The notes under the pieces: model-generated
What the model saw: only the letters and a program-made list of their open reading frames with translations
The model's database searches: none
What the model was told of the DNA's origin: nothing
DNA from: an uncultured bacterium
GTDB taxonomy: Bacteria; Acidobacteriota; HRBIN11; JAKEFK01
NCBI GenBank assembly: GCA_963843285.1
Contig: CAWJJO010000017.1
Span: 65,881-129,880, forward strand
DNA: 64,000 nt
Direction: 5' to 3'
Shown: piece by piece, positions 7,018 to 63,705 of the stretch
How the letters are laid out: every line of letters begins with the position of its first letter
Numbering within the stretch: the first letter of the stretch is position 1
Translations under genes and position numbers: made by a program

Positions 7018-7025
7018 TGGACTAT

Positions 7026-14768: not shown

Positions 14769-14828
14769 GTTCTTCTAGAAATTGTACATCCCTGGCAAAG
14801 GCGGCGTACTTTTCAACTGGTGCTAGTG

Positions 14829-14897: not shown

Positions 14898-14910
14898 GGC
14901 TAGGAATCAG

Positions 14911-15333: not shown

Positions 15334-15525
15334 AGCTATCCTCCTGTTTGACTGGAGAATATGATTGTGGAAACCACTTCGCAAGCCTCTGGGAGATATG
15401 AGTACAGAATTTCCGAATCATTCGTACCTCCACTGACTGTCACTGTTCCATTCAGCATTTCATCGAATCTCTTTAGGGGTGTGTCCGATTCCAGCCGGAA
15501 TGGGCAGAGGTATAATTCAGGTTCC

Positions 15526-15966
15526 ATGCAACTCCCGGTTCCAGAAACCCGAAAGAGCGTTTTGAGGAAATTGCATCTGATTGTAGGAATCGTGGGAATT
15601 GTTGTTTTTCTCGGGACCGGGCAGTATATGCGGTTGGTGTATGACGGACTGCGAGGCGTGGAGCCCCTTCCGCGGATGTTGTTCCGGTCGGCGCACATCT
15701 ACTTGCTGCTTTCCAGTCTGATCAATGTGGCTCTGGGGCTTTATCTTTCGCGTTCCTCCACCCGTGGCCGTAAAATCTTGCAGACAATCGCATCTACTTT
15801 TATTTTGTTTTCTCCCCCTCTCATGCTGACAGCATTTTTCGTAGAACCGGGTCTGGCGAGTTTTCATCGACCATTTGCCGGACCCGGTATCTATGCCTTA
15901 TTTTCAGGGATGCTGCTTCACTTGATCGCGGGTTTCCGCAAATCAGACCTGCATGAGCGCATCTAA
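15526..15966 (+). CDS. Hypothetical membrane protein (about 4 TM)
   Basis: Track ORF 15361..15966. I prefer the ATG at 15526 (MQLPVPETRK), which follows a perfect TATAAT at 15511..15516 and so may be leaderless. The rest is hydrophobic helices. The start is uncertain. Confidence 0.45.
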   Translation: MQLPVPETRKSVLRKLHLIVGIVGIVVFLGTGQYMRLVYDGLRGVEPLPRMLFRSAHIYLLLSSLINVALGLYLSRSSTRGRKILQTIASTFILFSPPLMLTAFFVEPGLASFHRPFAGPGIYALFSGMLLHLIAGFRKSDLHERI

Positions 15967-16265
15967 TGGCTGCCTGCGTTCGCTGGTGCGCTGGACCTGT
16001 CCGTCTCTTGATACGTGACCGTAACTTCTTCACCTTTTCGCAATTGGGATAGAAGTTTCATCTCGCCCCCAATCATAAAAGTGCTGTTGGTGGCGGGATG
16101 AAATACTTCTTCGCCTTCTTTTCCTTTCACGATGATGATCCTCAGCTTCGGATCGACCATCATGATTTTTCCCGAATAGCTTTGTTGCGTCGCTGCCCAT
16201 CCAGGTGTTACCACCCAGCACAGAACGGTCAGCATTCCAGTCGCGAGTGTAATGAAACGTCTCAT
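15963..16265 (-). CDS. Small secreted hypothetical protein
   Basis: The ATG at 16265 follows AAGGAGGA. Signal peptide MRRFITLATGMLTVLCWVVTPGWA. About 100 aa. The longer track ORF to 16529 has no support. Confidence 0.55.
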   Translation of the reverse strand: MRRFITLATGMLTVLCWVVTPGWAATQQSYSGKIMMVDPKLRIIIVKGKEGEEVFHPATNSTFMIGGEMKLLSQLRKGEEVTVTYQETDRSSAPANAGSH

Positions 16266-45452: not shown

Positions 45453-45477
45453 TTCATCCTTCATCCTTCATCCTTCC
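45453..45477. repeat. Heptamer tandem repeat (TTCATCC)x3
   Basis: TTCATCCTTCATCCTTCATCCTTCC. Its reverse complement CGGAAGGATGAAGGATGAAGG recurs at 61278..61298. It contains the stop codon of the 45454..47244 gene (...GRMKDEG*). Confidence 0.75.
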
Positions 45478-47244
45478 GGTGTGGCCCCAGTTTACGGGGA
45501 AGAAGCCCATGCCTCTAGCCATCGAGTTCGGCACGCAGAAGTAGGTCATCGAGATCGGCGGGTTGTATCCGCCCTTTCGGGGAAACGGATAGATGGTGCG
45601 CGTGTGTGTGCAGTACCGGGACAGGATTGCGTAGCCTCCCAGAGAAGCGCAAATACGCCAACTATGCCGTCCAAAAGAATCCGTTCCGTAAACCGGTCGC
45701 AATCCCTGTCCTGAAAGTTCGTGAACATAACGAAAGCCTGCATGATAGGTATTCCATCCGGTGGCCAGCAGATCGGGATCGTTCAGAGCTGACTCTTCGG
45801 TGAAAATGACGATGATTCCGGCGTCGCAATATTGCCGGAAGACATCCACGACGCGTTCGTTGGTTTGTCCGCGGACTTCGTGAAAGCCGTTTCCCACAAA
45901 CATCACCGCATTCTCAGTTGGAAATCCTGCCGACCGAATGGCATCAATGATCGTAGCAGGATGTCCGATATCGGCTCTGCGAATGAAAATCATGTTCTGC
46001 GGCAAGGCGCCCTGTTTCTGCAACTCGATTGCGCGATCGATGGCAGCATCTTCCAGATCCGCTCCAAAATACTGCAACCCTTCTCCCTCTTTTTGCATTC
46101 GTTGCCGTGTTGCTTCTCCGTGACCCAGAGCATGTTCAACGAACACCCCGCATTGAAAATGATTTTCTTTTGCGAAACGGTCGAAGGCATCATTTGCCAT
46201 CTGAAATGTCTTGCGGTTTGCATCCTGACTGGCCGCAATATTTTTTCCCCTCTGGACCCACGTTGCCGCCTGCATTCCAGACAACTTTGCCGCCAGGACC
46301 CGCATGTAAGGCACATACGCATGAATGATTCCGAACGGACCCGGTCCGCGTTGCAGTACACGGGCTCCCAGGATTGTCAATCTTCCAGTGCGTCCGGTCA
46401 TCCCCGCGTTCTTGAGCAGCCGTTTCATTTCCGGCATCAATGACGGGATTGCTTCGAATAGATTCGCACCTTCTTCGCGTGGGGCTTTCACAGCGTGCAA
46501 CGCAAGGACCAGCGGCAGCAAGCGGTATCCCGTTTCGATTTGAAACTCGGTGGGAGGCCAGTCTTTTTGCGGACCCTGTTGTTGAGAATATTGGAGAAAC
46601 TCCGCGATCAATTCCCGCCGGCGCTGTGAAATTCGTCTGCCGCTCAATAAGGCTGTCATGGGATCCGCCATATCTGTAAGAAAGCAATCCGGAATGGGAG
46701 ACGCTTTACGAAAAACAAATAAGGCTTGTGGATTGTCGGCAACAATGTATCTGTGCTGTCTCAATGTGAGCAGCCCGCGCGAATGCAGGAGGGAAAGATC
46801 GGAATGCAAGTGTTGCGGATTCAGGCCATGTTCGGCCATCGTGATTCCCTTGCCGTGCAAGAGTAAGTTCACTAAACCCAACTGCGCGTGCAGGCCAATC
46901 ACATGTTTGAGAATCCAGAGATCCGGCGGAGCGCAGACAGAAGCGCTATACACAATGTTGCGCAGAACCTGCAATACCCTCAGGATCTGGCGATGCTCGG
47001 ATTCGGTGAATTGTTTTCGGCCGTTCAGCTTTCTTTCCGAGCTTCGAATCCAGATCAGGAGGGCTTCAGCATCGCGGAACAGATGCGGGACATGCTGCAG
47101 GAATAACCGGAAGGAACCCTCAGATATGTAGGGAAATCCCGAGCTGCTTAATGTCGACTTTCCCGTCAGAATCCGGATCAGGAAATGTCTTTGCGGATGT
47201 TCTGGAACCACTTCCTGAATGCGTTTCGCCAGAGAAGACCGCAT
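45454..47244 (-). CDS. Large class I methyltransferase-like protein with an N-terminal wHTH-like region
   Basis: ATG at 47244 (MRSSLAKRIQ). The track start at 47295 lies inside a REP element. SAM-fold motifs: VFVEHALGHGE (motif I, AxGxG), YFGADLED (acidic loop), MFVGNGFHEV. The N-terminal 300 aa has wHTH-like segments (LSLLHSRGLLTLRQHRYIV). Family not recognised. Confidence 0.45.
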   Translation of the reverse strand: MRSSLAKRIQEVVPEHPQRHFLIRILTGKSTLSSSGFPYISEGSFRLFLQHVPHLFRDAEALLIWIRSSERKLNGRKQFTESEHRQILRVLQVLRNIVYSASVCAPPDLWILKHVIGLHAQLGLVNLLLHGKGITMAEHGLNPQHLHSDLSLLHSRGLLTLRQHRYIVADNPQALFVFRKASPIPDCFLTDMADPMTALLSGRRISQRRRELIAEFLQYSQQQGPQKDWPPTEFQIETGYRLLPLVLALHAVKAPREEGANLFEAIPSLMPEMKRLLKNAGMTGRTGRLTILGARVLQRGPGPFGIIHAYVPYMRVLAAKLSGMQAATWVQRGKNIAASQDANRKTFQMANDAFDRFAKENHFQCGVFVEHALGHGEATRQRMQKEGEGLQYFGADLEDAAIDRAIELQKQGALPQNMIFIRRADIGHPATIIDAIRSAGFPTENAVMFVGNGFHEVRGQTNERVVDVFRQYCDAGIIVIFTEESALNDPDLLATGWNTYHAGFRYVHELSGQGLRPVYGTDSFGRHSWRICASLGGYAILSRYCTHTRTIYPFPRKGGYNPPISMTYFCVPNSMARGMGFFPVNWGHTGRMKDEG

Positions 47245-47269
47245 GACGCTATGATACACCTCGGGGCGT

Positions 47270-47320
47270 GGAGCCGCGGGCCTCCGTGCCCGCATTATGG
47301 ACCGCAGGCATCTTGCCTGC
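47270..47320. repeat. REP-like composite (two hairpins), inverted relative to 44172..44220
   Basis: GGAGCC-GCGGGC-ctccgt-GCCCGC (47270..47293), then ATTATGGACC, then GCAGGCA-tct-TGCCTGC (47304..47320). Confidence 0.75.
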
Positions 47321-49814: not shown

Positions 49815-52250
49815 ATGGAAAGGCTGATTCAAGACCTTCGATATTCATTCCGGATGTTCCGCAAGAGTCCGGCGTCCATACTCGCGGCGCTGTTCTCCAT
49901 GGCTCTGGCGATCGGAGCAAATACTACGGTCTTTAGCTGTATCAATGCAGCGCTTCTCACAGCGCTTCCCTACCGTAATCCGGATCGGATCGCACTCGTT
50001 TGGGGAAAGACGCTGGCTCCAGACAATTACAGTCTGCGAAATCAGGTTTCCGCCACTGATATTGCGGACATGCGCGCACAAAATACCGTGTTCGAAGAGT
50101 TATCCATATATACAGGATGGATGCCGATCCTTTCGGGCGCGGGAGAGGCCGAACGTATTTCCGCAATCCAGGTAGGCGACGGCTACTTTAAAGTCTTAGG
50201 AGGTAAGCCGATGTTGGGGCGTGTTTTCAGGCCGGAAGAACAGCAGGAAGGAAAGGACTTTGTGATTGTTCTTGGTTACGGACTCTGGCAAAAGCGTTTT
50301 GGTGGAGATCCTCATATCGTTGGAAAGAGTGTCCTTCTAAGCGGCAGGTCGTACGTAATTGTAGGTGTGATGCCTCGAGATTTTGCCCCGCTTCCCGCGA
50401 GCCTGGTTTCCCCGGTTGGAGAATTCTATCGCCCTGTCGCGGAACCATATGATGACAAGAAACGAGATGAGCATCATCTTCGGGCTATCGCGCGTTTGAA
50501 GCCAGGCGTTGCTTTAACGCGGGCGGAAGCTGAATTGGATGGCATTGCGAAGAGGCTGGAGCGGCTGCATCCCGAAACAAATACGGATGAGGGAATTCAC
50601 GTTGTTTCACTGACAGATGACATCGTAGGGGAGATTCGTCCGGTTCTGTTGATGCTCTTTGGAGCGGTTACGTTTGTTCTGTTGATTGCCTGCGCCAACA
50701 TCGGAAACCTGCTGCTGGCCCGCTCTACTGCAAGACTAAAGGAGATCGCATTGCGTTCCGCGATCGGAGCTCCAAGGGGACGTATCATTCGTCAATTACT
50801 GACCGAGAGCCTGTTGCTGTCTTTGAGCGGCGGATTGCTGGGATTCCTGATGACATTTTGGGGCAGGGATCTGGTCCAGTCATTTGCTTCTTCGGTTCTG
50901 CCTCTGCTTCAAACGATTGATATCAATTTCCGCGTATTTGTGTATGCTTTCGGCATTTCTGTATTGACGGGAATCCTCTTTGGTCTTGCTCCCGCTCTGA
51001 AGTTGTCCGGAACAGATCTTACCGGCTCACTCAAGGAAGGCAGCGGAGGCATGGATGCTTTCGCGCACAACAGTTTGCGGAAAACACTGGTTGTGAGTGA
51101 AGTGGCCGTCACATTGATGCTGTTGATGTCCGCCGGTTTGTTGATTCAAACTGTGATTCGTCTTGGAAGAGTCGATCCGGGATTCAAATCTGTGAATCTT
51201 CTAACCATGAGCATCGGATTGCCGCCAATCAAGTATCCGGATCCGCCAAACTGGATTTCATTTTACCGCCAGGCTCTGGAGAAGATTGATAAAATTCCGG
51301 GTGTCGAATCGGTTGCAAGTGTAAGTGTGCTGCCCATGAGCGACAACTTTGATGGGCGCGGCATGATGGTCGAGGATTTCCCAAAACCCCGCGGTCAGGA
51401 GATCTCGGTAGATATGTACGTGGCCTCTCCGCATTACTTGGAGACCATGCGGATTCGGGTCCTGAAAGGGCGTGCGCTGAATGTGCACGATCAGGAGAAT
51501 TCGCCTCCAGTTGTGTTGATCAATCAAACGATGGCGAACCAACTATGGCCGAATGCAAGTCCAATCGGTAAGAGGATCAAATTTCCTCGCTCCGATGGTG
51601 ATCCGCAGCCCTGGAGAACGATTGTAGGCGTCGTGCACGATGTCTCCCAGTACGGGCTCGACCGAACGCCGCCGATGCAAATGTACCTTCCCCATTCACA
51701 AGTTCCAACATCCTACAACACAATTGTTGTGAGAACGCCTGTGGCCCCCGGAGTTATGATGGCATCTGTTCGGAAAGCCATTCAGGCCGTCGATAAGGAT
51801 CAAGCAGTGTTTAACATCACCACGATGGATGAGCTTCTGTCCAAGTCGGTTTCGCTCCGCAAGTTCCTGATGTTGCTCCTTGTGTTATTTGCGGCTCTTG
51901 CGCTCAGTCTGGCAACGATCGGAATTTACAGCGTGCTGTCCTATTCAGTTACCAGGCGCACGCGCGAGATCGGAGTTCGGATGGCGTTTGGCGCGCTGCG
52001 CAAAGATGTCTTAAAGATGGTGGTTCGCCAGGGAATGGCTCTCGTCATCGTGGGAATTTTTGTCGGAACTGCCGGAAGTCTTGCGCTTTCAAGGCTGATC
52101 CGCAGGCTTCTATTTGAAGTACAGCCGTCTGATCCGCTTACGTTGATCCTGGTTTCGGTGGTGATTGCAGGAGCGGCTCTGGCCGCTTGCCTTATTCCCG
52201 CGTATCGTGCGACACGGATCGATCCGATCGCTGCGCTGCATCACGAATAG
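49815..52250 (+). CDS. ADOP-type duplicated FtsX/MacB-like ABC permease
   Basis: The N-terminus LIQDLRYSFRMFRKSPASILAALFSMALAIGANT is typical. It has two MacB-periplasmic plus FtsX 4-TM modules in 811 aa. Confidence 0.9.
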   Translation: MERLIQDLRYSFRMFRKSPASILAALFSMALAIGANTTVFSCINAALLTALPYRNPDRIALVWGKTLAPDNYSLRNQVSATDIADMRAQNTVFEELSIYTGWMPILSGAGEAERISAIQVGDGYFKVLGGKPMLGRVFRPEEQQEGKDFVIVLGYGLWQKRFGGDPHIVGKSVLLSGRSYVIVGVMPRDFAPLPASLVSPVGEFYRPVAEPYDDKKRDEHHLRAIARLKPGVALTRAEAELDGIAKRLERLHPETNTDEGIHVVSLTDDIVGEIRPVLLMLFGAVTFVLLIACANIGNLLLARSTARLKEIALRSAIGAPRGRIIRQLLTESLLLSLSGGLLGFLMTFWGRDLVQSFASSVLPLLQTIDINFRVFVYAFGISVLTGILFGLAPALKLSGTDLTGSLKEGSGGMDAFAHNSLRKTLVVSEVAVTLMLLMSAGLLIQTVIRLGRVDPGFKSVNLLTMSIGLPPIKYPDPPNWISFYRQALEKIDKIPGVESVASVSVLPMSDNFDGRGMMVEDFPKPRGQEISVDMYVASPHYLETMRIRVLKGRALNVHDQENSPPVVLINQTMANQLWPNASPIGKRIKFPRSDGDPQPWRTIVGVVHDVSQYGLDRTPPMQMYLPHSQVPTSYNTIVVRTPVAPGVMMASVRKAIQAVDKDQAVFNITTMDELLSKSVSLRKFLMLLLVLFAALALSLATIGIYSVLSYSVTRRTREIGVRMAFGALRKDVLKMVVRQGMALVIVGIFVGTAGSLALSRLIRRLLFEVQPSDPLTLILVSVVIAGAALAACLIPAYRATRIDPIAALHHE

Positions 52251-52259: not shown

Positions 52260-55200
52260 TTACGGTTCCGAAATCTCCACCGGGACTTCGGTGTCGTTGC
52301 CGCGGATTTCGGGAACATACATGGCGTAGCCGATCACAGGCAGCCCATGAAATTTTCCCGGTACTTCCGCGCGAAGATCATAACTGATTTGCCAGATTCC
52401 TTCCGGAAGTTGTTGAACAAACAGGGCAACCTTGCGATCCCGAAGCTCCTGATAAACCGGGATCGATTCTCCTGCGCCGTCTTGTTGCGGCTCGAACTCA
52501 TCGGAATCGCGCACCGGCGATTCCAGATTCCAGCGCAACGCAGTCAGGAACGCGCCGCTTTGCAATGTGGTTGCTTCCAGACCGGCGGGTTTGAGATCTT
52601 CAAACAATAGATACTCATAGTTATTCTTTGATTCGATCGTGATCACGACCTGGAGCCGGTCTCCGCTGCGGAGCAATTCCCCGTTCTTCAAAGAATGCTT
52701 ATCGTAAACGTACCCGTGTAGCAGGCTTGGTCTTCCCGTAATTCTGTAATATTGCCGTCGTACAAAAATCTGATTGCCGGTCGCTGCAACCGGCTCTTCC
52801 AGGCTGAAAAATCCGGATTGCACGGAGTAGTAGAGCGGGTGGCCGCTACTCTTGCGCACAATATGGATTGTATTGTTTCCATCACGCACCAACTTCGGAT
52901 CGATGCGGACAACACCTGGCGCCTCTCCAGAAGTGTTATGAGGAACCGGCATTCCGTTGACGTTCAGCTCAAAATCGAAAGCCATTGCTCTCTCTTTTGG
53001 ATCTGATGAAAGCATGGACCGGATCGTTTTCGCTTCATCCGATTGCTTCAAATAGTCGTTCAGAGTAAGAATCACAACAGCGGTGTCCAGAGTGCTGCTC
53101 CATTGAGCTCCACGCCTATTCTTGATGAGCCAGTTGACAGCAGGCTCTATCAACTTGTTTCGAGAATCGATCATGAGCAGCGCCCGCAAAACAAAGGAAG
53201 TCGTGCCGACAGCGCTGTCCTGCCAGCGCGGTCGAATCGCATCCGATCCCCAGTGCGCCGTTCCGATTGATGTGTTTTGAGAAACTTGCGGAGCACGTAA
53301 AACCATGGACGTATCCGGTTTGCCGTCGATTTTTACACCATCTTCCAAATTTCTTGCAAGGACTTTTGACTTTTCCGAATCCCCCAGATAGTTTGCCGTC
53401 AACGCAAGTAAGGCACGGGAATACGAATTCATCTCACGTCTGCGTCCCCACAAAGTCCGAAAAGTTTTTTTCTGATTCTCATTCGCATCTTGTTTCGTGA
53501 TCGAAGTCACCGCGTGCAGCATCCACGCCTGCTCCTCAAACGGATTCTCTTCTGGAACGAGCTGCTGATCCAAAAACGCCGTTGCCCGGTTCAGTACAGA
53601 AGGATCGATGGCAACTCCGGCGTCTCTTGCGATTCCAAGCCCCCAGACAACGTAACCGGTCATGAATCGATCGTCCGATCCGTCCTTCCACCAGCCCCAA
53701 CCGCCGGTTGCATTCTGAAGGTTGTACAAGCGATTTAGAGACAATTTCACGATTTCCTCGAGTTGTTGAAACTCCTGTTTTCCTTCCGGGTGCGTGTTTT
53801 TGGCGTACTGTGGTTCGATCCCCTGAAACATTCGAGAAGCAAGCATCTCCGGCTCTGCTCCAAGATCGCTCAGCGTTTTCTGTACAATGATCGCGGGCAG
53901 AAAACGGCTCATGGTTTGCTCCGTGCAACCGTAGGGGTAGTGAACGAGATAAGGAACCGCATCCAGCATGGCGATGGCAAGACTCGGAGCAACCTGAATG
54001 GTCAGGCTTGTTGTCTCCGGCTTTCGCTCGCGCGGCAATAGGACGTTCACGGTTACTCCATTACCCTGTACTTTTCCTGATTTCGTAATCAGCTTTTCGA
54101 TCCCATGCTCGTAAACCGGGAGACTTCTTTCCATTGCATCGGAATATTCATCTGAGAGGGCTGAAACCCTCAGTTTGGCAGTCCCGGGTTTTGAAACGAA
54201 AGCAACCCAGTCGATTCGTTTTTCGCCGTTTGGTTCTAATTCAATAGTCGGGTCGCTCTTTTCTTGTAATGTGAACCCTTCTGCCTCCAGAGAGACTTTG
54301 GTCTGCAACCGGGAGTTGACGTTGTTGTTGACGATGGCGGAAAGGGTCACCGTATCTCCGACAACGAAAAAGCGTGGACTTTCCAACCGGACAATCAGGG
54401 GCTGATTCGTGCGGGAGCTGGAAGTTGCGATGCCGAATTGCGAAGACTGTGTCGCGGCACGGGCCGTAGCTTTCCAGGTTGTGACGGAATCGGGGAATTT
54501 CACTGTAACGCTCACTTTGCCGTTCGTGTCAGTCTTAAGATCCGGCTGCCAGAATGCGGTCGTGCGGAAGTCCGATCGTACCGTGACGAGGGAATCTGAT
54601 TGTATCCTTTGGAAGGAGTCCATATCGTACACCCAACCCCGAGGTAGCGGCGTGAGGTACTCCGTTGACGACGCTTGCGTGGTAACGGCTGCTACTTCCG
54701 CAGCGACTGCAACTTGTTCCTCGAGCGATGGACGCATTGTAATCTCAAGATGGACATCGTCATCGATTGATATTTCAATACTCTCTTGTCTGATTTCTGC
54801 AAAGCCTGCCAGACGGAAAGTGATCGTGTAGGTTGCGGGAAGCAGACCTGAAAGCCGAAACATTCCATTCGCACCGCTGTAAGTCGACCGTGAGTCCACT
54901 CCTGGAGCCTCCGCTGTGACAATGACCCCTGGTATAGCGGCGCCATTTTCATCCGTAACGACGCCTTCGAGAGTTGCGACACTGTTTCCATCGCCCTTCC
55001 TTTTTCCCGAACTGATTTTCACCTGACCTTTGGCTTTCTGCCTCTCTTGTTCAGAATAGAACCTCGCATATTTCAGCAAGGCGAACGTGCTTTGCTCCGA
55101 AACACGGTTCCCCCGTTTCGTGCCGAAATAGAATTGTCGCGGGTCGGGCGCATAATCCTCCTGGATCGTATAAACAGACTCATCGATCACCCCCAGTGCA

Positions 55201-58200
55201 ACATCGCTGGATACCGGCTTGCCCTGGAAATCCAGAGCCGTAACTGTGATCGTTCCCTGGTCTCGGGGTTTATACTCATCCCTGTCTAAGGCGACGTGTA
55301 GCTGCAACAACTGTTTTTCAGGCGGAACAAGCAGAAGCGACTGCGACCGGAAGATCTGCGAATTGCTGATCATGGAGGCATTTAGAAAAACGTTGGGAAC
55401 CTGTTTGTCCTCCACGTCAAATTCAACCAGCTTTGCCATTCCGGTCAGATGCACGAGCTCGTAGTGGTAGAGATCCTCTCCCTCCACCGTAAACAGAATG
55501 TAACGATTTGCGTCTGGAGCCATCAGGATTACGGCTGCGCGTTTGCCGGGCTCAACACGGTCTCTGTCCAGAATCATTTCCAACCCGCCATGACGATAGC
55601 CAAGCTCGGTGGTCGCCGCGCCGGCCACCCATACGAAGGTTTCAGACTGGACCGGTACGAGTTCGGTGTCTATGCTATTCAAGCTAATTCCGTAGTATCC
55701 ATCCTGTGGAGGTGTGAAGCTAAAATCGGCATGGCCTTTAGCATCTGTCTTGATTCGGGCCGATAGAATCTCCCTGCGATCATACTTGCGAATTTCTTCT
55801 TTCCATGCGTTTCGAGCAATGCGAATCGTGCCTTCCTCTGATACCGGATGATTGTTGGCGTCCAGGGTCCGAAAGCGGATTAACACTTTGTCTCCGGGAT
55901 GATATACGTTATGTTCCGGAATGGCGTAAGCGAAGTACCGCTGTCTGGTAACGTTGATGGTTTCTTCGGCAACGTTTTCGCGTCGCGAAGCATCTGTAAC
56001 ACGTGCTTCTACGCGGTACTGCAAATCATGCTGAGGATATTTCGGCGTTTGCAGTGTGTAGACTGCTTTGCCGGAGGCGTCCGTTGTCAGAATCTTTCTT
56101 ATGGTGGCCCCGCCATAGCTCGATCCATAGTTTCGATTCGGGTAGACTTCTGCGGAAAGCCACGGGTAGTCCGGTTCCGGCTGCCAGCTTGGACTGAAAA
56201 ATCCCTGATAGATCAACAATTCGACTCTGGCATTGAAAACCGGGGAGCCGAAGTAATAATCGGACTGCACGGTAATGTCGACGTTTTCGCCCGGACGGAA
56301 CGCTTTCTTCTCGCCGTTTTCTTGCGGAGCTAGAACCGCAACCTTAAATTCAGGAAGCTTGTATTCCTCCAGCCGGAAGAGGGTTGCAAAACCGATCGTT
56401 TTGCTCCTTCCCTCATTCCAGAAGGAGATGCCATACGCACCGAGAGCCATCGTGTCGGTCAGCGGAAAGGAACCCCAGGCGCTTCCAAACCCGTTAAGAG
56501 TGATTTTGTCTGTTCTTACTTTTGCTCCCCGCGGGTCGGTGATTTCATATTCAATGCTCTCATTAGAAGGAGTAGAGTAGAATGAGCCATCGTATTTTCT
56601 TGCGATCAACTTCCATTGAGCCGTTTCGCCTGGACGGTAGGCGGGACGATCTGTAAAAGCATAGATGCGCCACGATTCCGGCTCCTGGTAGTTCCGGCTG
56701 AGTTTTCCGGCGCCGAATGCCTGGCGCTCTCCCGATCCGGCGATCACAAGAAAGCCTGCGTTGTGCTGAGGATCGGTCAGATCGAAGACGCAGATTCCAT
56801 CCTTGTTCGTTTGATTTGTTTGTTCAACAATGACCGGTTGCTGCTGAACGTAATTCTGTTCCCAAATCTTTAGCCCCGCATTCGGAACGGGAGATCCATC
56901 GAGTGCATTCGAAACATAAGCAAGGGCCTTCTTGCTTGTAATCTTCAGCAGAACGGTCACATCTGTAACCATGATCAAATCCCGGGATTTCAATTTGCCA
57001 CTCGTGGCTTCCAGCATGTAGGAGCCCACAGGTAGTTTGTCTTTCAAGGCCACGGTTTCGGTGACTGGCAGATAGTCGCCTTTGTCTCCTGTTTCCCTGG
57101 ACCAGGATTGCACGGGCGTGAGCGACAAAAGATCCATGCTGCGTAGCGAAGCAGTCAATTGTTGATAAGCGGCAGGCTTTGCCTCGTTCAACAAGTCGAC
57201 TTTGTATAATGCGAAATCGATCCGGCTCAGGTTTCGCCATCGGAGATTCAGGCGGATTTCCGATTCCGGCAAAAAGATATTGGATACTCCGGCAAACAGG
57301 CTTGGTAGCGTGATTTCTTGAATGCGCGAACGCGCTTCATCGTAGTAAGGCGTTTCTCCTTTTTGAAATTCATTCGTTAATCGCTGAAACAAGGCGAGCG
57401 CTTTGGCATAATCCAGCTTACGCCCTTGCGCCGTTCCTCTTGTTCGGTCTTGTTCGTTAAATCCGGAAAGCCATAGGGCGTAACCGCGAAGTGTATCATC
57501 GTACCATTCCGTTACTTTGCCGTATTGGAGAACGTGTTCGAATTCCTCCGGGACACGCCGTACCATCTCCGGAGTTAGCTGGGGTTGCTCGGACAATTGT
57601 TTTGCTATCAGATAGTGGGCGCGCGCACAATCGTTCGCATTTTCGGTGATCGTCGGAATGTTGTCCAGGATTTCAACCGGAACCAGGTTGCTATAGTAGG
57701 TACCTTGTCTCTGCGGGGGTGTCGCAGCCTTCCATACGATTGCGATGTATCTCTGGCGAGCAAGTTCGATGTCCGGGGCGCCGGCCCACCATTCTAACGC
57801 CTGCGAGTAATAGCTCCATGCGGTAGACTGATCCGCATGGTCCGGTCTAATCCAGTAGAAGTCGCCCAGTGATTCCTGCACCTCGGCCCAAACTTGGTCC
57901 TGGTCTTTCTCTTCCATATTTTCTGTGAGCGCTTCCAACTGCTTTTCAGCCTGGTTGAAATCGGATTCTTCCGCGGTACTCGAGGCGGCATGGGAACGCC
58001 ACAGAGTATCGGCCAAACGAAAATTTACCCACCGGAGATTCTCAGATGACAATTTCATGGCATGAATTCTCGAATAAATCTCGTAGGCTCTACTATAAGA
58101 GCCTTCAGCGTAGTAGGTCTCCGCCTCAGTCTTTAGACTGTCAAAGCCCGGAGGCTCTGCCTGAGACATCAATGCGATGACTAAGATGAATCCTACTGAG

Positions 58201-58214
58201 CAAATTCTTTCCAT
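52260..58214 (-). CDS. Alpha-2-macroglobulin family protein with a thioester, an N-terminal TPR-like region and an internal CarboxypepD_reg-like domain
   Basis: The ATG at 58214 (MERICSVGFILVIALMSQA) starts a signal peptide. The thioester YPYGCTEQ is at about 53911..53934. The CarboxypepD_reg-like segment GVVTDENGAAIPGVIVTAEA...YTITFRLAGF is at about 54830..54990. There are many MG-type beta-sandwich segments. Confidence 0.9.
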   Translation of the reverse strand: MERICSVGFILVIALMSQAEPPGFDSLKTEAETYYAEGSYSRAYEIYSRIHAMKLSSENLRWVNFRLADTLWRSHAASSTAEESDFNQAEKQLEALTENMEEKDQDQVWAEVQESLGDFYWIRPDHADQSTAWSYYSQALEWWAGAPDIELARQRYIAIVWKAATPPQRQGTYYSNLVPVEILDNIPTITENANDCARAHYLIAKQLSEQPQLTPEMVRRVPEEFEHVLQYGKVTEWYDDTLRGYALWLSGFNEQDRTRGTAQGRKLDYAKALALFQRLTNEFQKGETPYYDEARSRIQEITLPSLFAGVSNIFLPESEIRLNLRWRNLSRIDFALYKVDLLNEAKPAAYQQLTASLRSMDLLSLTPVQSWSRETGDKGDYLPVTETVALKDKLPVGSYMLEATSGKLKSRDLIMVTDVTVLLKITSKKALAYVSNALDGSPVPNAGLKIWEQNYVQQQPVIVEQTNQTNKDGICVFDLTDPQHNAGFLVIAGSGERQAFGAGKLSRNYQEPESWRIYAFTDRPAYRPGETAQWKLIARKYDGSFYSTPSNESIEYEITDPRGAKVRTDKITLNGFGSAWGSFPLTDTMALGAYGISFWNEGRSKTIGFATLFRLEEYKLPEFKVAVLAPQENGEKKAFRPGENVDITVQSDYYFGSPVFNARVELLIYQGFFSPSWQPEPDYPWLSAEVYPNRNYGSSYGGATIRKILTTDASGKAVYTLQTPKYPQHDLQYRVEARVTDASRRENVAEETINVTRQRYFAYAIPEHNVYHPGDKVLIRFRTLDANNHPVSEEGTIRIARNAWKEEIRKYDRREILSARIKTDAKGHADFSFTPPQDGYYGISLNSIDTELVPVQSETFVWVAGAATTELGYRHGGLEMILDRDRVEPGKRAAVILMAPDANRYILFTVEGEDLYHYELVHLTGMAKLVEFDVEDKQVPNVFLNASMISNSQIFRSQSLLLVPPEKQLLQLHVALDRDEYKPRDQGTITVTALDFQGKPVSSDVALGVIDESVYTIQEDYAPDPRQFYFGTKRGNRVSEQSTFALLKYARFYSEQERQKAKGQVKISSGKRKGDGNSVATLEGVVTDENGAAIPGVIVTAEAPGVDSRSTYSGANGMFRLSGLLPATYTITFRLAGFAEIRQESIEISIDDDVHLEITMRPSLEEQVAVAAEVAAVTTQASSTEYLTPLPRGWVYDMDSFQRIQSDSLVTVRSDFRTTAFWQPDLKTDTNGKVSVTVKFPDSVTTWKATARAATQSSQFGIATSSSRTNQPLIVRLESPRFFVVGDTVTLSAIVNNNVNSRLQTKVSLEAEGFTLQEKSDPTIELEPNGEKRIDWVAFVSKPGTAKLRVSALSDEYSDAMERSLPVYEHGIEKLITKSGKVQGNGVTVNVLLPRERKPETTSLTIQVAPSLAIAMLDAVPYLVHYPYGCTEQTMSRFLPAIIVQKTLSDLGAEPEMLASRMFQGIEPQYAKNTHPEGKQEFQQLEEIVKLSLNRLYNLQNATGGWGWWKDGSDDRFMTGYVVWGLGIARDAGVAIDPSVLNRATAFLDQQLVPEENPFEEQAWMLHAVTSITKQDANENQKKTFRTLWGRRREMNSYSRALLALTANYLGDSEKSKVLARNLEDGVKIDGKPDTSMVLRAPQVSQNTSIGTAHWGSDAIRPRWQDSAVGTTSFVLRALLMIDSRNKLIEPAVNWLIKNRRGAQWSSTLDTAVVILTLNDYLKQSDEAKTIRSMLSSDPKERAMAFDFELNVNGMPVPHNTSGEAPGVVRIDPKLVRDGNNTIHIVRKSSGHPLYYSVQSGFFSLEEPVAATGNQIFVRRQYYRITGRPSLLHGYVYDKHSLKNGELLRSGDRLQVVITIESKNNYEYLLFEDLKPAGLEATTLQSGAFLTALRWNLESPVRDSDEFEPQQDGAGESIPVYQELRDRKVALFVQQLPEGIWQISYDLRAEVPGKFHGLPVIGYAMYVPEIRGNDTEVPVEISEP

Positions 58215-58318
58215 TCTAAAGAGTAAGACGCAGAAGTCGTGCCAAAGACTTCTCGCCGAGACGATTTTCAATGAATCCAATTAGCCGAATGATGGGACGT
58301 CTTTAAGGATGTAAGGAA

Positions 58319-59149
58319 TCAAAATTTTGGTCTGTGGATTCTTCGTAATGCTGCGGGAGTTTCTCCGGTTTGTTTCTTGAAGTTGTGGGTGAAGTGACTC
58401 TGATCGTAGAAACCGGCATCCAATGCAATTTGCATCACCGATTTGTCTGTGAAAGTCAGTTCACGAATTGCCCGTTCAACGCGAAGTTTACGAATGTACT
58501 GTCCGATTGTGAGTCCAAATTCCATCCGGAATTTTCGAGCCATATGGGCAGGGTGGATTCCAACGATCGACGCGATTTCGTTTAGTCTTAGGTTTTCATC
58601 ATATCGTTCGTTGATCAGTTCTTTTGCGCGCGACAGCCACTCCGATTGTTTGGGCTCGCTCCGGATCCTTTCCTGTTTCATCCGTTGAGATTGCGCCAGT
58701 AGCTCCAGTACAAGTCCTTCAATCGCGATCAGGGACGCAGAATCCTGAATTCGTAATTCGCTGTAGATGCGACCGGCAATCAACGAATGAAATCCACTCC
58801 GGAAATGATCGATCGTCTTCAGGAGTGGAGCCAGGGCCCCAACGAGCGCCATCAATGCTGGTTTCAGTTCCACGATTAGACAATACGCTCCGGTTCGTCC
58901 ATACCGGTCTTCATGGATCGCTCCACCCGGTTTTAGAAGCATGCTTCCAGGCTTGCATTCGTGACTCTGATCGGCAGTGGTCTCCTGGAAAGAGCCGTCC
59001 AACACGAAAACCAGATTTGGGAGCTCGTGACAGTGCTTCGGCAATGTGAGTGCTGGTGCGTGCCTGGTTTCTGTCAGCACAACTGTATCCGCCTCCACGC
59101 TTCTTACTGTAGCGCCTAGAGTAATCGGACTGAAGAAATCAACCGCCAT
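58319..59149 (-). CDS. AraC family transcriptional regulator (cupin N-domain plus double HTH)
   Basis: The C-terminal region is LNEIASIVGIHPAHMARKFR...YIRKLRVERA...DAGFYDQSHFTHNFKKQTG. Confidence 0.85.
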   Translation of the reverse strand: MAVDFFSPITLGATVRSVEADTVVLTETRHAPALTLPKHCHELPNLVFVLDGSFQETTADQSHECKPGSMLLKPGGAIHEDRYGRTGAYCLIVELKPALMALVGALAPLLKTIDHFRSGFHSLIAGRIYSELRIQDSASLIAIEGLVLELLAQSQRMKQERIRSEPKQSEWLSRAKELINERYDENLRLNEIASIVGIHPAHMARKFRMEFGLTIGQYIRKLRVERAIRELTFTDKSVMQIALDAGFYDQSHFTHNFKKQTGETPAALRRIHRPKF

Positions 59150-59345: not shown

Positions 59346-60827
59346 ATGTTGAGGAAATCTGCTTTCCTTTTTTTCCTCATTGTACTCACGTCCGGCGCAT
59401 TCGCCGAAACTCTCAAGACGTTGAGTCTGTCAAAAAAATTTGCGAAGACAGCGGGAACTCCGCGTGTCATCCGAAACGGGCAAGAGCACGAATGGCTTGT
59501 TGCGTGGCGTCAGGAAGGAGGTTCCGGCAAGATTTTTGGCCGGATCGTCGCATCGGACGGCACGCTGGGAAAACGTAAGGTGCTGGCGAAAGGAGTCAGT
59601 GCAAATGCTCAGAATCTGGATGTCTTTTACGACTCCGTTGCGTATACATACCTTCTTGTTTGGGAAGGGAAGAAGGGGCTTGAATCTCAGATATTCACCG
59701 GGGCCCTCTCCAAACAAGGACCTTCTAATGTACTAGTAGCTGGAGTTAGCAACGCGTTTCCCCGTCTTGCTTTCAATGCGACTCAGAAGCAATTTCTCCT
59801 GTTCTGGCTGGAATCGGCGAACGGTTCTCCGCACGCTGTCTTGAAGAGCATACTTCTGGATCAGACCGGAGCCCCTGCGGGGGCAGTGCAAACGCTTGTC
59901 CAGGCGGGATCCGGCAAATCCTTTGAATCCCTGAGTGTTTCCACAAACCAGAAAAACGAGAACCTCGTAGTAATCGCTCTGGAACAAAGCGCCGGTGGTT
60001 CCGAGCTGCTTGGCTTCCTGGTAAAGCCGAATGGGACGCTTCTGAAAAGCAAACCAGTCACTTTCGAACCGAACCAGGCGGGATTGTTCACTGTTGGAGA
60101 TGCCAGCTTCGCGGATAACGGCAAGGGGTTCGGGTTTTGGAGCTCGCAAACTCTAATCAAGTATCGAACCTTGAGCTCTAAAGGAAAACTGGGAAGCGAG
60201 AAAGATATTGCCGATGCAGCAGACACAAGTAGTCTGCAAACGAGCATGCTCTTTGACCAGCGAAACAACCAGTTCATTGGATGCTGGGGTCAGGGAAACA
60301 AGATTTCATCCGTTGTTCTCAATGCGAGTGGCAGTATCGAGGATGGCCCGTTTGTCGTTTCTTCGAATGACACAGCCACGGCCTCCATCAATGTCGCGAC
60401 TTCCTATGATGCGCAATTGGGAAATGCGATCGTTGTCTGGGATGACCAGCTTGGAAGCGGTTCTAGCGTCAAATATGTGGCGCGAGCTGCCCTCTTTTTT
60501 GTCGAAAGTAGTGCGACTCTTCAGGGAATTTCGATCGGCGACAACTTTTACACTTCCAGCAACGGCACGGGAAACATCAGCGTCAAAGCGGGTGACACGG
60601 TTACCTGGACCAATCAAGGCGGTATGGTTCACACGGTCACAAGCGGGAGTGAATCTTCTTCCCCGGGTTCGCTATTTGACAGCAATAACCTGTCGCCCGG
60701 TCAAACTTTCTCGTTCCGCTTTGTGACTGAAGGGTCGTTTCCTTATTTCTGCAAAGTTCACGGGAGTTCGGTAATGAACGGTACGATTACTGTTGCCGCT
60801 GCAGGTGAAGATCCTCCGCATTATTGA
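59346..60827 (+). CDS. Secreted seven-repeat (propeller-like) protein with a C-terminal type-1 copper cupredoxin domain
   Basis: GAGGAGG RBS and signal peptide MLRKSAFLFFLIVLTSGAFA. It has seven roughly 50-aa repeats centred on LVAWRQ, LLVWEG, LLFWLE, VVIALEQ, GFGFWSS, FIGCWGQ and IVVWDD. The C-terminal domain carries GDTVTWTNQGGMVHTV and YFCKVHGSSVM (C-x2-H-x4-M). Confidence 0.75.
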   Translation: MLRKSAFLFFLIVLTSGAFAETLKTLSLSKKFAKTAGTPRVIRNGQEHEWLVAWRQEGGSGKIFGRIVASDGTLGKRKVLAKGVSANAQNLDVFYDSVAYTYLLVWEGKKGLESQIFTGALSKQGPSNVLVAGVSNAFPRLAFNATQKQFLLFWLESANGSPHAVLKSILLDQTGAPAGAVQTLVQAGSGKSFESLSVSTNQKNENLVVIALEQSAGGSELLGFLVKPNGTLLKSKPVTFEPNQAGLFTVGDASFADNGKGFGFWSSQTLIKYRTLSSKGKLGSEKDIADAADTSSLQTSMLFDQRNNQFIGCWGQGNKISSVVLNASGSIEDGPFVVSSNDTATASINVATSYDAQLGNAIVVWDDQLGSGSSVKYVARAALFFVESSATLQGISIGDNFYTSSNGTGNISVKAGDTVTWTNQGGMVHTVTSGSESSSPGSLFDSNNLSPGQTFSFRFVTEGSFPYFCKVHGSSVMNGTITVAAAGEDPPHY

Positions 60828-61267
60828 TGATGCGGGCAGCCGGTCTTCTTCTTTTTGTTGTGTTGCTGTTTGGCGGATGTGCCGGAAACGGCACGGGTCT
60901 GGATGAAAACGGGAATCCGGTTGGATCGGATGGAAACGGATTGCCTCTTGCTCCGACATTTTCCAGTATTCAGGACCACGTTTTCAGCGCAATCTGTATC
61001 GAATGCCACACCGGCGTATCCGCTCCGCAGGGACTTCAGTTAGATGCGTCCGTTTCTTACGATCATCTGGTAAATGTACGATCTGTCGAGCATCCTGAGC
61101 TGTTTCGTGTTTCGCCGGGAGATCCGGACAATTCCTATTTGATCCGGAAGCTAGAAGGAGGCCCCGACATTGCAGGAGCGCGAATGCCTCTGAATCGCCC
61201 TCCGCTTTCGAGAGAAACAATCAACGCAATCCGGCTGTGGATCGCGATGGGAGCACAGCGCAATTGA
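60827..61267 (+). CDS. Monohaem c-type cytochrome lipoprotein (PSCyt1-like domain)
   Basis: The start overlaps the previous stop (TTGATGATG). Lipobox LLFGGC and CxxCH motif CIECH. GLQLD...VSPGDPDNSYLIRKL...RMP resembles the planctomycete-type cytochrome c domain. Confidence 0.7.
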   Translation: MMRAAGLLLFVVLLFGGCAGNGTGLDENGNPVGSDGNGLPLAPTFSSIQDHVFSAICIECHTGVSAPQGLQLDASVSYDHLVNVRSVEHPELFRVSPGDPDNSYLIRKLEGGPDIAGARMPLNRPPLSRETINAIRLWIAMGAQRN

Positions 61268-61277
61268 AGGATGAGGG

Positions 61278-61298
61278 CGGAAGGATGAAGGATGAAGG
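61278..61298. repeat. GGATGAA heptamer repeat, copy 2, containing the original start codon of the interrupted downstream gene
   Basis: CGGAAGGATGAAGGATGAAGG is identical to the reverse complement of the 45453..45477 region. The ATG at 61285..61287 is in frame with 62610 onward once the IS and one AGG copy are removed. Confidence 0.7.
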
Positions 61299-61368
61299 TG
61301 TGTTGTCCTGGAATAGGTTGACAGATTTCGGGTGGATGGAGTCAACCAGGGTAAAAGGAGTGGTGGAG

Positions 61369-61764
61369 ATGCCAGGACAGTATATAAGCTATCGTTATAG
61401 CTTAGCATTCAAGCAAAAAGTAGTATCTGAAATTGAATCCGGTAAGTTTTCTATCGGAGAAGCACGTCGGATTTATGATATTAACGGCAGCGAGACGATC
61501 CAGAAATGGTTAAAAAGGGTTGGAAAGCAGCATTTACTAGATAAGGTGGTTCGAATTGAAATGAAGGACGAAAGAGATAAATTAAGGGAGCTTGAAAAGC
61601 AGAAAAATGAGCTGGAGTCGGCTTTAGCGCAGGAGCATTTAAAGAATCTTTCTCTGGAAGCGCTCATCGAATCGATCGAAGAGCATTATGGAATAGATGT
61701 AAAAAAAAATTTTGGCGGCAAAGCGTCCCCAAAGTTTATTTACAAGCCCAGGAACAAGGGTTGA
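61369..61764 (+). CDS. IS3 transposase OrfA (HTH plus leucine zipper)
   Basis: ATG at 61369. FSIGEARRIYDINGSETIQKWLKR (HTH) and LRELEKQKNELESALAQEHLKNL (coiled coil). Confidence 0.9.
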   Translation: MPGQYISYRYSLAFKQKVVSEIESGKFSIGEARRIYDINGSETIQKWLKRVGKQHLLDKVVRIEMKDERDKLRELEKQKNELESALAQEHLKNLSLEALIESIEEHYGIDVKKNFGGKASPKFIYKPRNKG

Positions 61765-62570
61765 GATACTCAAAGGGTCGAATTTGTGGAGTGTTCGGAT
61801 TGACACGCCAAGCCTTTTATAAAGCTCAGAAATCACGTAGGGAAAGATTTTTAAAAGAAGACAGAGTTGTCAGTGAGACCAGGAGAATCCGGCGAAGCCA
61901 ACCGAGAGTCGGAGGAAAAAAGCTTTATAGAATGCTTCGCCAAATTGGAATTCAGATAGGCCGCGATCAGCTATTTCAGATTCTGCGAAATAACATGTTA
62001 CTGATCAGGCGGAGGAAGAGTTTCATAAAAACCACAAATTCCTATCATCGGTTCAGAAAATACCGCAACCTGATTAAGGATTTAACGGTGACCAGACCAA
62101 ACGAGGTTTTTGTCTCCGACATTACGTATTTGGACACGGTTGATGGGTTTTGCTATCTTGCTCTGATTACGGATCTTTATTCCCGCAAAATAGTCGGCTG
62201 GAATGTCAGCAAAAGCCTGTCGGTGGAAGGATGCCAAAAAGCTTTAAAGATGGCACTGAAAGACACGGAACATACTTCGGGTCTCATTCATCATTCGGAT
62301 CGCGGACACCAGTACTGCAATCCTCGATATACAGAGATTTTGCAAAAATATGGGATTCAAATTAGCATGACCGAAGAAAACCATGTCTACGAAAATGCGG
62401 TTGCTGAGCGAGTCAATGGAATATTGAAAGACGAGTTCCTCTTGGGAACAAGACTTCCTTCCTTCGACAATGCGAACCAACTGGCCGCAAATTCAATAAA
62501 AACGTACAACAATCAACGCTTACACCTGAGTTTGGACTACAAAACACCGGCCGAATGTTATGCAGTTTGA
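61761..62570 (+). CDS. IS3 transposase OrfB (DDE catalytic domain), expressed as OrfAB by a -1 frameshift
   Basis: DDE residues are in VSDITYLDT, IHHSDRGHQY and ENAVAERVNGILK. The -1 frame is open from the A9 run (61701..61709) through 61761, so A-AAA-AAA slippage would give ...DVKKKFWRQSVPKVYLQAQEQGLRYSKGR.... Confidence 0.9.
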   Translation: MRYSKGRICGVFGLTRQAFYKAQKSRRERFLKEDRVVSETRRIRRSQPRVGGKKLYRMLRQIGIQIGRDQLFQILRNNMLLIRRRKSFIKTTNSYHRFRKYRNLIKDLTVTRPNEVFVSDITYLDTVDGFCYLALITDLYSRKIVGWNVSKSLSVEGCQKALKMALKDTEHTSGLIHHSDRGHQYCNPRYTEILQKYGIQISMTEENHVYENAVAERVNGILKDEFLLGTRLPSFDNANQLAANSIKTYNNQRLHLSLDYKTPAECYAV

Positions 62571-63705
62571 AGTCAAAGAAGTGTCAACTTTTTTTAGGAC
62601 GACACAAGGCGGACGCGCACGTCGCGCGCTTACTCTGGCTGCTGTAATTCTGGTAAGCGTCGTTTCACTTTCACAGGCGGAATCGTATTTGGCGATTCGG
62701 GAAGGGTTGAGCTGCGGAAGCTGTCACGTGAATCGAACCGGCGGAGGACAGAGAACCCGCATGGGCGCAGGATACGGCGCAGACGAGATGCCGTGGAAGC
62801 CGATCGATCTGATAGCGAAGAAAATTCCCTTCTTCCTGTCCTTTCACGATGATTTGATCGCCATTGGAGGTGATTTCCGTTTCGAAAATCTAAGCACGTT
62901 TGTTCAAGATCACGCCTCCAACACATTTCAAACTGATAAATCCGATCTCTATCTCCGCATCAATCTGATTCCGGATCACCTGACCTTCTACCTGGATGAG
63001 AGTGTCGCGCCCGGCGGGGCTCAGTCGCGTGAAATATTCGGCATGCTTCAGGGATTGCCCGGCAGGGGTTGGCTGAAGGCGGGAGAGTTTGTGCTTCCTT
63101 ATGGAATCCGTTTGGAAGATGATCGAGCATTCATTCGTGAAGTTACGGGATTCAACTTCAACAACGCAGACCAGGGCGTGGAAATCGGCTTTGCGCCCGG
63201 CGCCTGGAACTTTGCTGCATCTGTGACGAATGGGACCCCTGGAAGTTCGGACGACAATGCCGGTAAGCTGATGGCAGGGTCTGTCTACTACTTAAACAGT
63301 AGATTCCGGATCGGAATTTCCGGATCGCATAATCCGGCGAATTCCGGCGATCGAAACAGCGGCGCGCTCTGGGCAGGGCTGAGATTGGGGCCGGCGGTTC
63401 TGCAAGGGGAAATCGATACGGTTCAGGACGACTCGGTTCCTGGACAATCCCGCGATCAATTGATTACCTATGCAGAGCTGGACTATTTGATTGCGCGCGG
63501 CTGGAATATCAAAGCGGCATATGAGTATTTTGATCCGAGCCGTGACATCGATGAGAACGAACGGGATCGAGTTCTGATCGGCATCGAGCCGGTACTTTGT
63601 TCTTTTCTACAATTGCAGATTTTTTATCGATTCAATCAAAGCATTCCCCAGAACAAACTCCAAAATGCAGACGATCTGACTGTCCGGCTGCACATCTACT
63701 TCTGA
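62560..63705 (+). CDS. Fused monohaem cytochrome / outer-membrane beta-barrel (Cyc2-like architecture), 5-prime end replaced by IS-derived codons
   Basis: Native sequence starts at 62607. The signal peptide RRALTLAAVILVSVVSLSQA is followed by LSCGSCH (CxxCH). After that come about 330 aa of alternating amphipathic strands ending in VRLHIYF (terminal Phe). The first 16 codons of the track ORF (MQFEVKEVSTFFRTTQ) come from the IS right end. Confidence 0.6.
   Translation: MQFEVKEVSTFFRTTQGGRARRALTLAAVILVSVVSLSQAESYLAIREGLSCGSCHVNRTGGGQRTRMGAGYGADEMPWKPIDLIAKKIPFFLSFHDDLIAIGGDFRFENLSTFVQDHASNTFQTDKSDLYLRINLIPDHLTFYLDESVAPGGAQSREIFGMLQGLPGRGWLKAGEFVLPYGIRLEDDRAFIREVTGFNFNNADQGVEIGFAPGAWNFAASVTNGTPGSSDDNAGKLMAGSVYYLNSRFRIGISGSHNPANSGDRNSGALWAGLRLGPAVLQGEIDTVQDDSVPGQSRDQLITYAELDYLIARGWNIKAAYEYFDPSRDIDENERDRVLIGIEPVLCSFLQLQIFYRFNQSIPQNKLQNADDLTVRLHIYF

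Follow-up and report, generated by a model that had tools for sequence, protein, structure and literature searches.

Putative haem-porins related to Cyc2 and paired with a monohaem lipoprotein: a family exposed by an insertion-interrupted operon of an uncultured Acidobacteriota bacterium

Introduction

Do a copper protein, a monohaem lipoprotein and an outer-membrane barrel with its own haem motif, encoded side by side in an uncultured bacterium of the Acidobacteriota, constitute an electron-transfer system of the Cyc2 type, or do they belong to something else? The question is raised by a locus situated towards the end of a 64,000-nucleotide stretch of contig CAWJJO010000017.1 (assembly GCA_963843285.1, positions 65,881 to 129,880 of the forward strand), hereafter referred to as the window. 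A sequence-only reading of this locus had recognized three co-directional genes beside a divergent AraC-family regulator, namely a propeller-cupredoxin fusion (gene 1), a monohaem lipoprotein (gene 2) and a Cyc2-like fused cytochrome-porin split by an insertion sequence (IS) (gene 3), and had proposed that they make up a single three-component module. Cyc2 is the main genetic marker by which genomes and metagenomes are screened for microbial Fe(II) oxidation.

The reading proposed here, which is given an even chance of being right, sees in the locus a conserved two-gene cassette, here interrupted by the IS, made of genes 2 and 3 and coding for a two-haem outer-membrane conduit, to which a copper carrier has been added in this lineage. 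In this respect, the novelty resides less in the damaged operon itself than in the family that it exposes, that of Cyc2-like haem-porins with a dedicated lipoprotein cytochrome.

The barrel protein and its family

Once the two parts of gene 3 located on either side of the insertion are joined, they encode in frame a protein of 369 amino acids (aa), which is 92% identical to an uninterrupted protein of 370 aa (P0001) from a related locus (L001); the restored DNA is colinear with that locus and displays no gap across the insertion point. The gene had rightly been described as split and rejoinable, but the junction then suggested (61285..61296 followed by 62607) lies a few bases off and is out of frame. 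The signal peptide and the CxxCH motif expected about 12 residues after its cleavage site are both recovered, since CGSCH (62713..62727) occurs 12 residues past the predicted cleavage between SQA and E. The motif (C40, C43, H44) is invariant in all 46 aligned homologues, whose consensus reads AEPYxAVREGLKCSxCHVNRTGGGxR; the searches for structures and for representatives used the window fragment 62608..63702 as first row.

The β-barrel anticipated from the sequence is also found by structure prediction, the AlphaFold2 (AF2) model consisting of 16 strands with a predicted local distance difference test (pLDDT) of 89.4 and a predicted template-modelling score (pTM) of 0.83. Its Foldseek matches are 16-strand porins, e.g., PorB, VhChiP, OprP and OmpF, with OprP (2o4v_A) in the fifth place at a template-modelling (TM) score of 0.65. 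The longest strongly conserved segments of the protein are the haem module (0.70) and a 26-residue loop linking strands β5 and β6 (0.71), which occupies the L3 place of classical porins, the other loops being short. Pfam gives only a marginal, sub-threshold match to Porin_4 (20.7 bits), NCBIfam gives no match, and the family profile finds no meaningful match among the sequences of the PDB.

Taken together, the marginal Porin_4 match and the structural resemblance to general porins could suggest an ordinary diffusion porin in which the CxxCH motif is incidental. This explanation is very improbable and was rejected on account of the invariance of the haem motif, which is retained in 46 of 46 homologues and in every representative read as full-length, belongs to a 25-residue signature with one of the highest degrees of conservation in the protein, and is accompanied by a cytochrome partner encoded nearly always in the adjacent gene.

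An exhaustive search with the barrel profile retrieved 3,218 representative clusters at 50% identity (E ≤ 1e-3), 509 of them at E ≤ 1e-30. The family signature, AEPY[LF]A[VI]R.G..C..CHVN.TGGG.R, directly follows the signal peptide in 130 of the 146 top new representatives, and the other 16 are read as N-truncated fragments because they mostly measure 240-353 aa and are matched by the profile only from a late position. Many members of the family are 345-362 aa long. The named ones come from metagenome-assembled genomes of Acidobacteriota, Nitrospiraceae, Ignavibacteria, Deltaproteobacteria and Pseudomonadota. A search of the literature found no description of these proteins, which form a large, undescribed family annotated only as hypothetical.

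Relationship with Cyc2

As defined by Keffer et al. 2021 (PMC8406198), Cyc2 possesses a signal peptide, a single CXXCH near the N-terminus and a 16-strand barrel resembling OprO/OprP, for a length of at least 365 aa; the motif AXPXFAR[Q/K][T/Y] upstream of CXXCH served as an inclusion filter for all three Cyc2 clusters, and a PXL motif occurs four residues past CXXCH. Gene 3 displays the signal peptide with a single N-terminal CXXCH, and the 16 strands together with the OprP match of its model. The upstream motif is replaced by AESYLAIRE in the window protein and by AEPY[LF]A[VI]R[ET] in the family, with only A-x-P-x-[FL]-A and the spacing in common, and the PXL motif is missing after the haem motif, where CH of gene 3 is followed by VNRTGGGQR.

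For profile comparisons, genomes were scanned with a degenerate DNA pattern, which yielded 86 complete Cyc2 genes of Zetaproteobacteria, Gallionellaceae, Sideroxydans, Chlorobium, Nitrospira, Bacteroidales and others, and a hidden Markov model (HMM) was built from these sequences. Comparison of the barrel family with the 86 Cyc2 by hhalign gives a probability of 95.2% (E = 2.9e-8) over 314 columns, and the haem module alone gives 95.4% (E = 1.9e-8); as a control, either haem module compared with the CxxCH region of gene 2, which is unrelated, yields 26-47% over 10-12 columns. The mature N-terminus A-x-P-x-[FL]-A-x-x-x-G-x-x-C-x-x-C-H has an identical spacing in the two families. Cross-recognition is reciprocal and specific: among 4,431 open reading frames (ORFs) of Cyc2 loci, the barrel-family HMM finds 55 Cyc2 ORFs, one Cyc2 fragment and nothing else. 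With the Cyc2 HMM, only six of the 83 barrel-gene ORFs from 83 related loci reach E ≤ 1e-3, and the window protein itself is not recognized (3.5 bits, compared to more than 400 bits for real Cyc2).

These sequence comparisons support a remote homology of gene 3 with Cyc2, mainly via the haem module. Accordingly, the Cyc2-like character attributed to gene 3 stands as regards the architecture and the hhalign probability of 95%, and fails as regards the PXFAR[QK][TY] and PXL motifs and the score on the Cyc2 HMM. From the common architecture, the remote homology, the absence of FAR[QK][TY] and PXL and the 3.5 bits, the barrel family is treated here as a remote sister family with the architecture of Cyc2 and not as a member of it.

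A bona fide Cyc2, with an operon devoted to lithotrophic Fe(II) oxidation and equivalent to cyc2-cyc1-rus, would readily account for this architecture and this homology, and for the occurrence of a cupredoxin and a c-type cytochrome in the same operon. Such an assignment is nevertheless quite improbable, taking into account the change of PXFAR[QK][TY] to EPY[LF]A[VI]R[ET] and of PXL to TGGG, the negligible score of the window protein, the lack of the gene 2 partner beside canonical Cyc2 (see below), and the lack of terminal oxidase, bc1 or carbon-fixation genes nearby. True membership of Cyc2 was rejected, the defining motifs being absent.

Compared to the Cyc2 of Acidithiobacillus ferrooxidans and Mariprofundus (Cyc2PV-1), the barrel family similarly has a haem module that starts at the mature N-terminus. 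Both kinds of protein measure roughly 360-480 aa, the barrel family being the shorter one (about 355-400 aa). It differs by the sequence VN[RP]TGGG.R that follows the haem motif and by an obligate PSCyt1-like lipoprotein partner, which is not found in canonical Cyc2 loci. The MtrCAB, MtoAB and PioAB systems, in which a 26-strand barrel sheathes a separate decahaem protein and, for MtrC, a lipoprotein cytochrome is involved, are alike only by analogy, as an outer-membrane barrel associated with c-type cytochromes including a lipoprotein; here, instead, a 16-strand barrel has its own single haem motif and the lipoprotein has one haem motif.

The lipoprotein cytochrome and the conserved pair

The neighbourhood of the barrel gene was surveyed in 83 loci, 80 from a metagenome scan and three from exact look-ups, among which 65 contain enough upstream sequence to be informative; adjacency of genes 2 and 3 was counted from the position of the haem Cys. 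A gene 2 homologue stands directly upstream of the barrel gene in 57 of the 65 informative loci and directly downstream in two more, and it occurs in none of 120 canonical Cyc2 loci. The conserved unit is thus the pair made of gene 2 and gene 3.

The lipobox and the single CIECH motif formerly read in gene 2 are both invariant: Cys18, which follows LFGG in the lipobox, and the CxxCH motif are kept in 118 of 118 homologues, with mostly Ala at position +2. Met120-Pro121 is equally kept in all 118 proteins, and Met120 is probably the axial ligand of a His/Met-ligated haem. The segment CAG.G.GLDENGNP, which begins at the lipidated Cys, is conserved in at least 90% of the homologues.

The assignment of gene 2 to a PSCyt1-like domain holds in part. 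The window protein remains below the threshold of PSCyt1 (PF07635, Planctomycete cytochrome C domain) with 18.8 bits for a cut-off of 22, but kinship is likely, because a related protein (L165, 1896-3104) passes it with 34.6 bits; the layout CxxCH...MP is common to both. PSCyt1 usually consists of the N-terminal domain of large PSD1/PSCyt2 proteins, whereas gene 2 encodes a stand-alone lipoprotein of about 150 aa with the conserved CAG.G.GLDENGNP tether. Searched against the sequences of the PDB, gene 2 gives only a chance-level match to cytochrome c550. The gene 2 domain is also encountered directly beside barrel genes, either as a tandem pair or at the C-terminal end of large extracytoplasmic proteins with repeats (580-920 aa; Table 1).

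No other family is as constant as gene 2 around the barrel genes. Among 142 neighbour proteins none is frequent besides it, Cytochrom_C and Copper-bind, each in five of the 142, being among the five most recurrent Pfam families. Sigma-54 response regulators are adjacent in 12 barrel loci. Two loci are informative in this respect. In L202 (Ga0255053_10000186, 1..9814), a co-directional histidine kinase, sigma-54 response regulator and cupredoxin/CarboxypepD_reg protein are accompanied by a divergent Cyc2 homologue (IPAFARMYKTGCSTCH; 77.8 bits on the self-built Cyc2 HMM), after which come a two-domain cupredoxin, a dihaem cytochrome c and then a pair similar to genes 2 and 3. In L165 (669..9864), the pair is followed by a Big_2+PSCyt1 protein, a cupredoxin-like protein, a GltD-like Fe-S flavoprotein, a Rieske protein and multihaem c-type cytochromes.

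The propeller-cupredoxin and its place in the operon

Gene 1 encodes a Sec-exported seven-bladed propeller followed by a type-1 copper domain, in agreement with the Sec signal, the propeller-like repeats and the complete copper ligand set that had been read from the sequence. The Sec signal, MLRKSAFLFFLIVLTSGAFA, would be cleaved before a Glu residue (E). The AF2 model, built on 41 homologues (pLDDT 91.9, pTM 0.90), contains about 29 strands in residues 19-397, which fits seven four-stranded blades, and then a small β-sandwich; its best structural match in the PDB (Foldseek) is the YncE propeller. The propeller part (about 380 aa) has no sequence match in Pfam or PDB. The C-terminal domain scores 36.9 bits on PF00127 (cut-off 21.2), and among PDB sequences the cupredoxin family profile matches plastocyanin, amicyanin and NirK-tethered cupredoxin (E as low as 8.5e-19). 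The four copper ligands, His429, Cys469, His472 and Met477 (C-x2-H-x4-M), do not vary in any of the 45 full-length homologues. Gene 1 thereby shares with rusticyanin, plastocyanin and amicyanin the ligand set H...C-x2-H-x4-M and the PF00127 match; unlike in these proteins, its copper domain is fused to the propeller.

The association of a propeller with a cupredoxin had been described as unfamiliar from known iron-oxidation or extracellular electron-transfer systems; it is not a novel combination as such, since NosZ shows the same domain order, a seven-bladed propeller and then a cupredoxin, and provides many of the top Foldseek matches. NosZ superposes poorly on gene 1, with a root-mean-square deviation of 17-20 Å. 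Its cupredoxin is a two-Cys CuA domain, whereas that of gene 1 has one invariant copper-motif Cys (Cys469) and is of type 1; its propeller harbours the seven-His CuZ site, whereas only one nearly invariant His occurs in the gene 1 propeller, which therefore has no CuZ-type His cluster. A NosZ-like enzyme was rejected, the metal ligands of NosZ being absent.

In the window, the three genes form one operon conserved in close relatives. The ORFs and the Pfam matches to HTH_18 and HTH_AraC confirm the three co-directional genes beside the divergent regulator, and the start of gene 2 overlaps the stop of gene 1, as reported before, by one base (TGATG). Orthologous operons, the search for which had been advised, do exist in relatives, in L001, where the barrel gene is uninterrupted, and in L126; the barrels of these two loci are 90-92% identical to gene 3. 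L001 has the same divergent AraC regulator and keeps the four-gene arrangement, at 85.6% DNA identity. The proposal of a three-component module is consequently valid for the operon here, in L001 and in L126, and does not apply in general: these two loci are the only ones among the 83 to contain a gene 1 orthologue, and gene 1 homologues (45-58% identity) occur without the pair in five other loci (L004, L005, L206, L207 and L209), four of which adjoin murJ. In L206, L207 and L209, the downstream ORFs tested are matched neither by the Cyc2 model nor by those of gene 2 and gene 3.

It is therefore conceivable, though rather doubtful, that gene 1 is functionally separate from genes 2 and 3, as a co-transcribed neighbour in one shallow lineage with another periplasmic role. 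Its two occurrences among the barrel loci and the five pair-less loci, mostly beside murJ, speak for a separate role; the one-base overlap, the arrangement kept at the above DNA identity and the recurrence of other cupredoxin proteins near the pair speak for a common one.

As a separate observation, the gene 1 homologues of L004, L005, L206, L207 and L208 share a conserved divergent environment with murJ and genes for an HMGL-like protein, an M20/M28 peptidase and an M1 peptidase. This murJ-type neighbourhood is a hint that the propeller-cupredoxin arose in surroundings with no relation to cytochromes. In L004 (GCA_975752425.1), a Tn7-like element (10172..16194) comprising a TnsA-like gene, an rve transposase, a TniB-like ATPase and two TniQ genes stands directly downstream of the gene 1 homologue.

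Possible function of the cassette

Depending on these features we infer, for the two-haem conduit proposed above, how haem would be attached, how the proteins would be oriented, how the partners would dock and which substrate would be used. The haem of the barrel would be located at or in the pore, beside the conserved L3-like loop, and would swap electrons with a small redox species entering the pore; this species would have to be dissolved, since solids are beyond the reach of a single haem enclosed in a 16-strand barrel. By analogy with Cyc2, Fe(II)/Fe(III) would be the most plausible substrate. The lipoprotein cytochrome, tethered to the outer membrane, would act as the dedicated periplasmic partner of the barrel. 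Solely in this Acidobacteriota lineage, the operon would have gained the propeller-type-1-copper protein and the AraC regulator, and the copper protein would serve as a third one-electron carrier, as rusticyanin does in Acidithiobacillus.

A number of observations weigh against this reading. The barrel alone aligns weakly with Cyc2 (hhalign, 40.8%), and the members of its family are all annotated as hypothetical proteins. In the 46 homologues of the barrel protein, no Met that could act as sixth haem ligand is conserved and only His366 is nearly invariant, which gives no indication of a high-potential haem. Most cassettes stand among housekeeping genes, and such genes also fill the approximately 25 kb upstream of the locus in the window, where the oxidase or bc-type genes that had been suggested as nearby partners were looked for and no terminal oxidase or bc complex was found; carbon-fixation genes are similarly lacking nearby in the window. 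The gene 1 family is otherwise unlinked to the cassette, and the barrel gene is currently interrupted in this genome. Given the missing Met and the housekeeping surroundings, lithotrophic iron oxidation should not be taken for granted.

A non-energetic electron transfer at the outer membrane, such as reductive acquisition of iron or copper, detoxification of Fe(II) or of an oxidant, or redox sensing, would suit several of these observations, i.e., the usual isolation of the cassette among housekeeping genes and the haem module devoid of a conserved Met ligand, as well as the spread over several phyla, most members of which are not known as iron lithotrophs, and the frequent proximity of regulators, AraC here and sigma-54 response regulators elsewhere. 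This role is judged unlikely, since nothing points specifically to uptake, TonB, ABC and siderophore genes not being recurrent among the neighbours.

The TGGG-type haem-porin with its PSCyt1-like lipoprotein could represent a second widespread kind of minimal outer-membrane conduit that escapes Cyc2-based marker searches, a tentative proposal held somewhat short of an even chance. Published Cyc2 filters would exclude the barrel family, because PXFAR is absent and many members are shorter than 365 aa. If true, this second kind of conduit could lie behind Fe(II) oxidation, or an exchange of electrons with the cell exterior, that goes unrecognized in soils and sediments. If the family moves electrons across the outer membrane, the iron and extracellular redox capacity of abundant soil phyla such as Acidobacteriota is under-counted, and the cassette would offer a very small, expressible two-protein model of electron transfer through the outer membrane. 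The significance for this particular genome is smaller, the barrel gene being disrupted and the copper protein a lineage-specific addition.

The IS3 insertion

The element inserted in gene 3 (Table 1) belongs to the IS3 family, as its transposase type, reading frames, inverted repeats and target duplication all fit. It is bordered by inverted repeats of 25 nucleotides (61299-61323 and 62582-62606; 80% complementary, TGTG...CACA) and by a 3-bp target duplication AGG, read from the flanks (61296-98 and 62607-09). The transposase matches NF033516 transpos_IS3 with 255.6 bits (cut-off 160) and rve with 79.8 bits. The ORFs orfA (about 61371 to 61764) and orfB (61761..62570) are in -1 frames, and a run of nine A (61703-61711) in the orfA/orfB overlap region is the probable site of the -1 frameshift. 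The element occurs as a single copy in the window, with a guanine plus cytosine content of 42.4% compared to 51-52% in the flanking genes.

The insertion has created a hybrid ORF, the ATG of which overlaps the end of the transposase gene and which keeps RARR, the hydrophobic core and the SQA cleavage site before E. Since the core of the signal peptide and its cleavage site are retained, gene 3 is maybe not fully dead, and the barrel gene might still be expressed via this predicted ORF. In this genome, the system is probably either inactive or dependent on the hybrid ORF.

Organization of the locus and its surroundings

The features of the locus, together with the gene 2-domain proteins found in other loci, are listed in Table 1.

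Table 1. Coordinates of the features discussed in the text (positions refer to the window, or to the locus named)
Feature	Position	Strand	Remarks
Divergent AraC-family regulator	58319..59149	-	Cupin sensor domain and HTH_18; Pfam HTH_18 84.7 bits, HTH_AraC 68.2 bits
Gene 1, exported propeller-cupredoxin	59346..60827	+	493 aa; propeller about aa 19-397, type-1 copper domain about aa 398-485
Gene 1, His429 codon	60630..60632	+	Copper ligand
Gene 1, Cys469 codon	60750..60752	+	Copper ligand
Gene 1, His472 codon	60759..60761	+	Copper ligand
Gene 1, Met477 codon	60774..60776	+	Copper ligand
Gene 2, monohaem c-type cytochrome lipoprotein	60827..61267	+	146 aa; PSCyt1-like; CIECH at 60995..61009
Gene 3, 5' fragment	61285..61298	+	ATG, codons 2-4, first two bases of codon 5
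IS3-family insertion sequence	61299..62606	+	1,308 bp; splits gene 3
Gene 3, 3' part	62610..63705	+	Signal-peptide h-region, cleavage site, haem module, 16-strand barrel, C-terminal HIYF; joined to 61285..61298 in the restored gene
Hybrid ORF made by the insertion	62560..63705	+	Starts in the right end of the IS, in frame with gene 3
Gene 2-domain protein, L155	6160-7908
Gene 2-domain protein, L200	2350-4467
Gene 2-domain protein, L159	2430-5189	-
Gene 2-domain protein, L180	3765-4922

Scans for promoters and terminators are not used as evidence: promoter-like sites occur at the level of shuffled sequences, and the 11 terminator-like sites found exceed the shuffled mean of 6.1 (sd 2.7) by about 1.8 sd. 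Farther upstream, the minus strand contains an ORF of 613 aa (45454..47295) devoid of any Pfam match at E ≤ 1e-5. A MacB/FtsX-type ABC permease (49815..52250, plus strand) adjoins the gene of a 2,006-aa alpha-2-macroglobulin-like protein with MG2, A2M and bMG10 domains (52260..58280, minus strand), which is located immediately upstream of the AraC gene.

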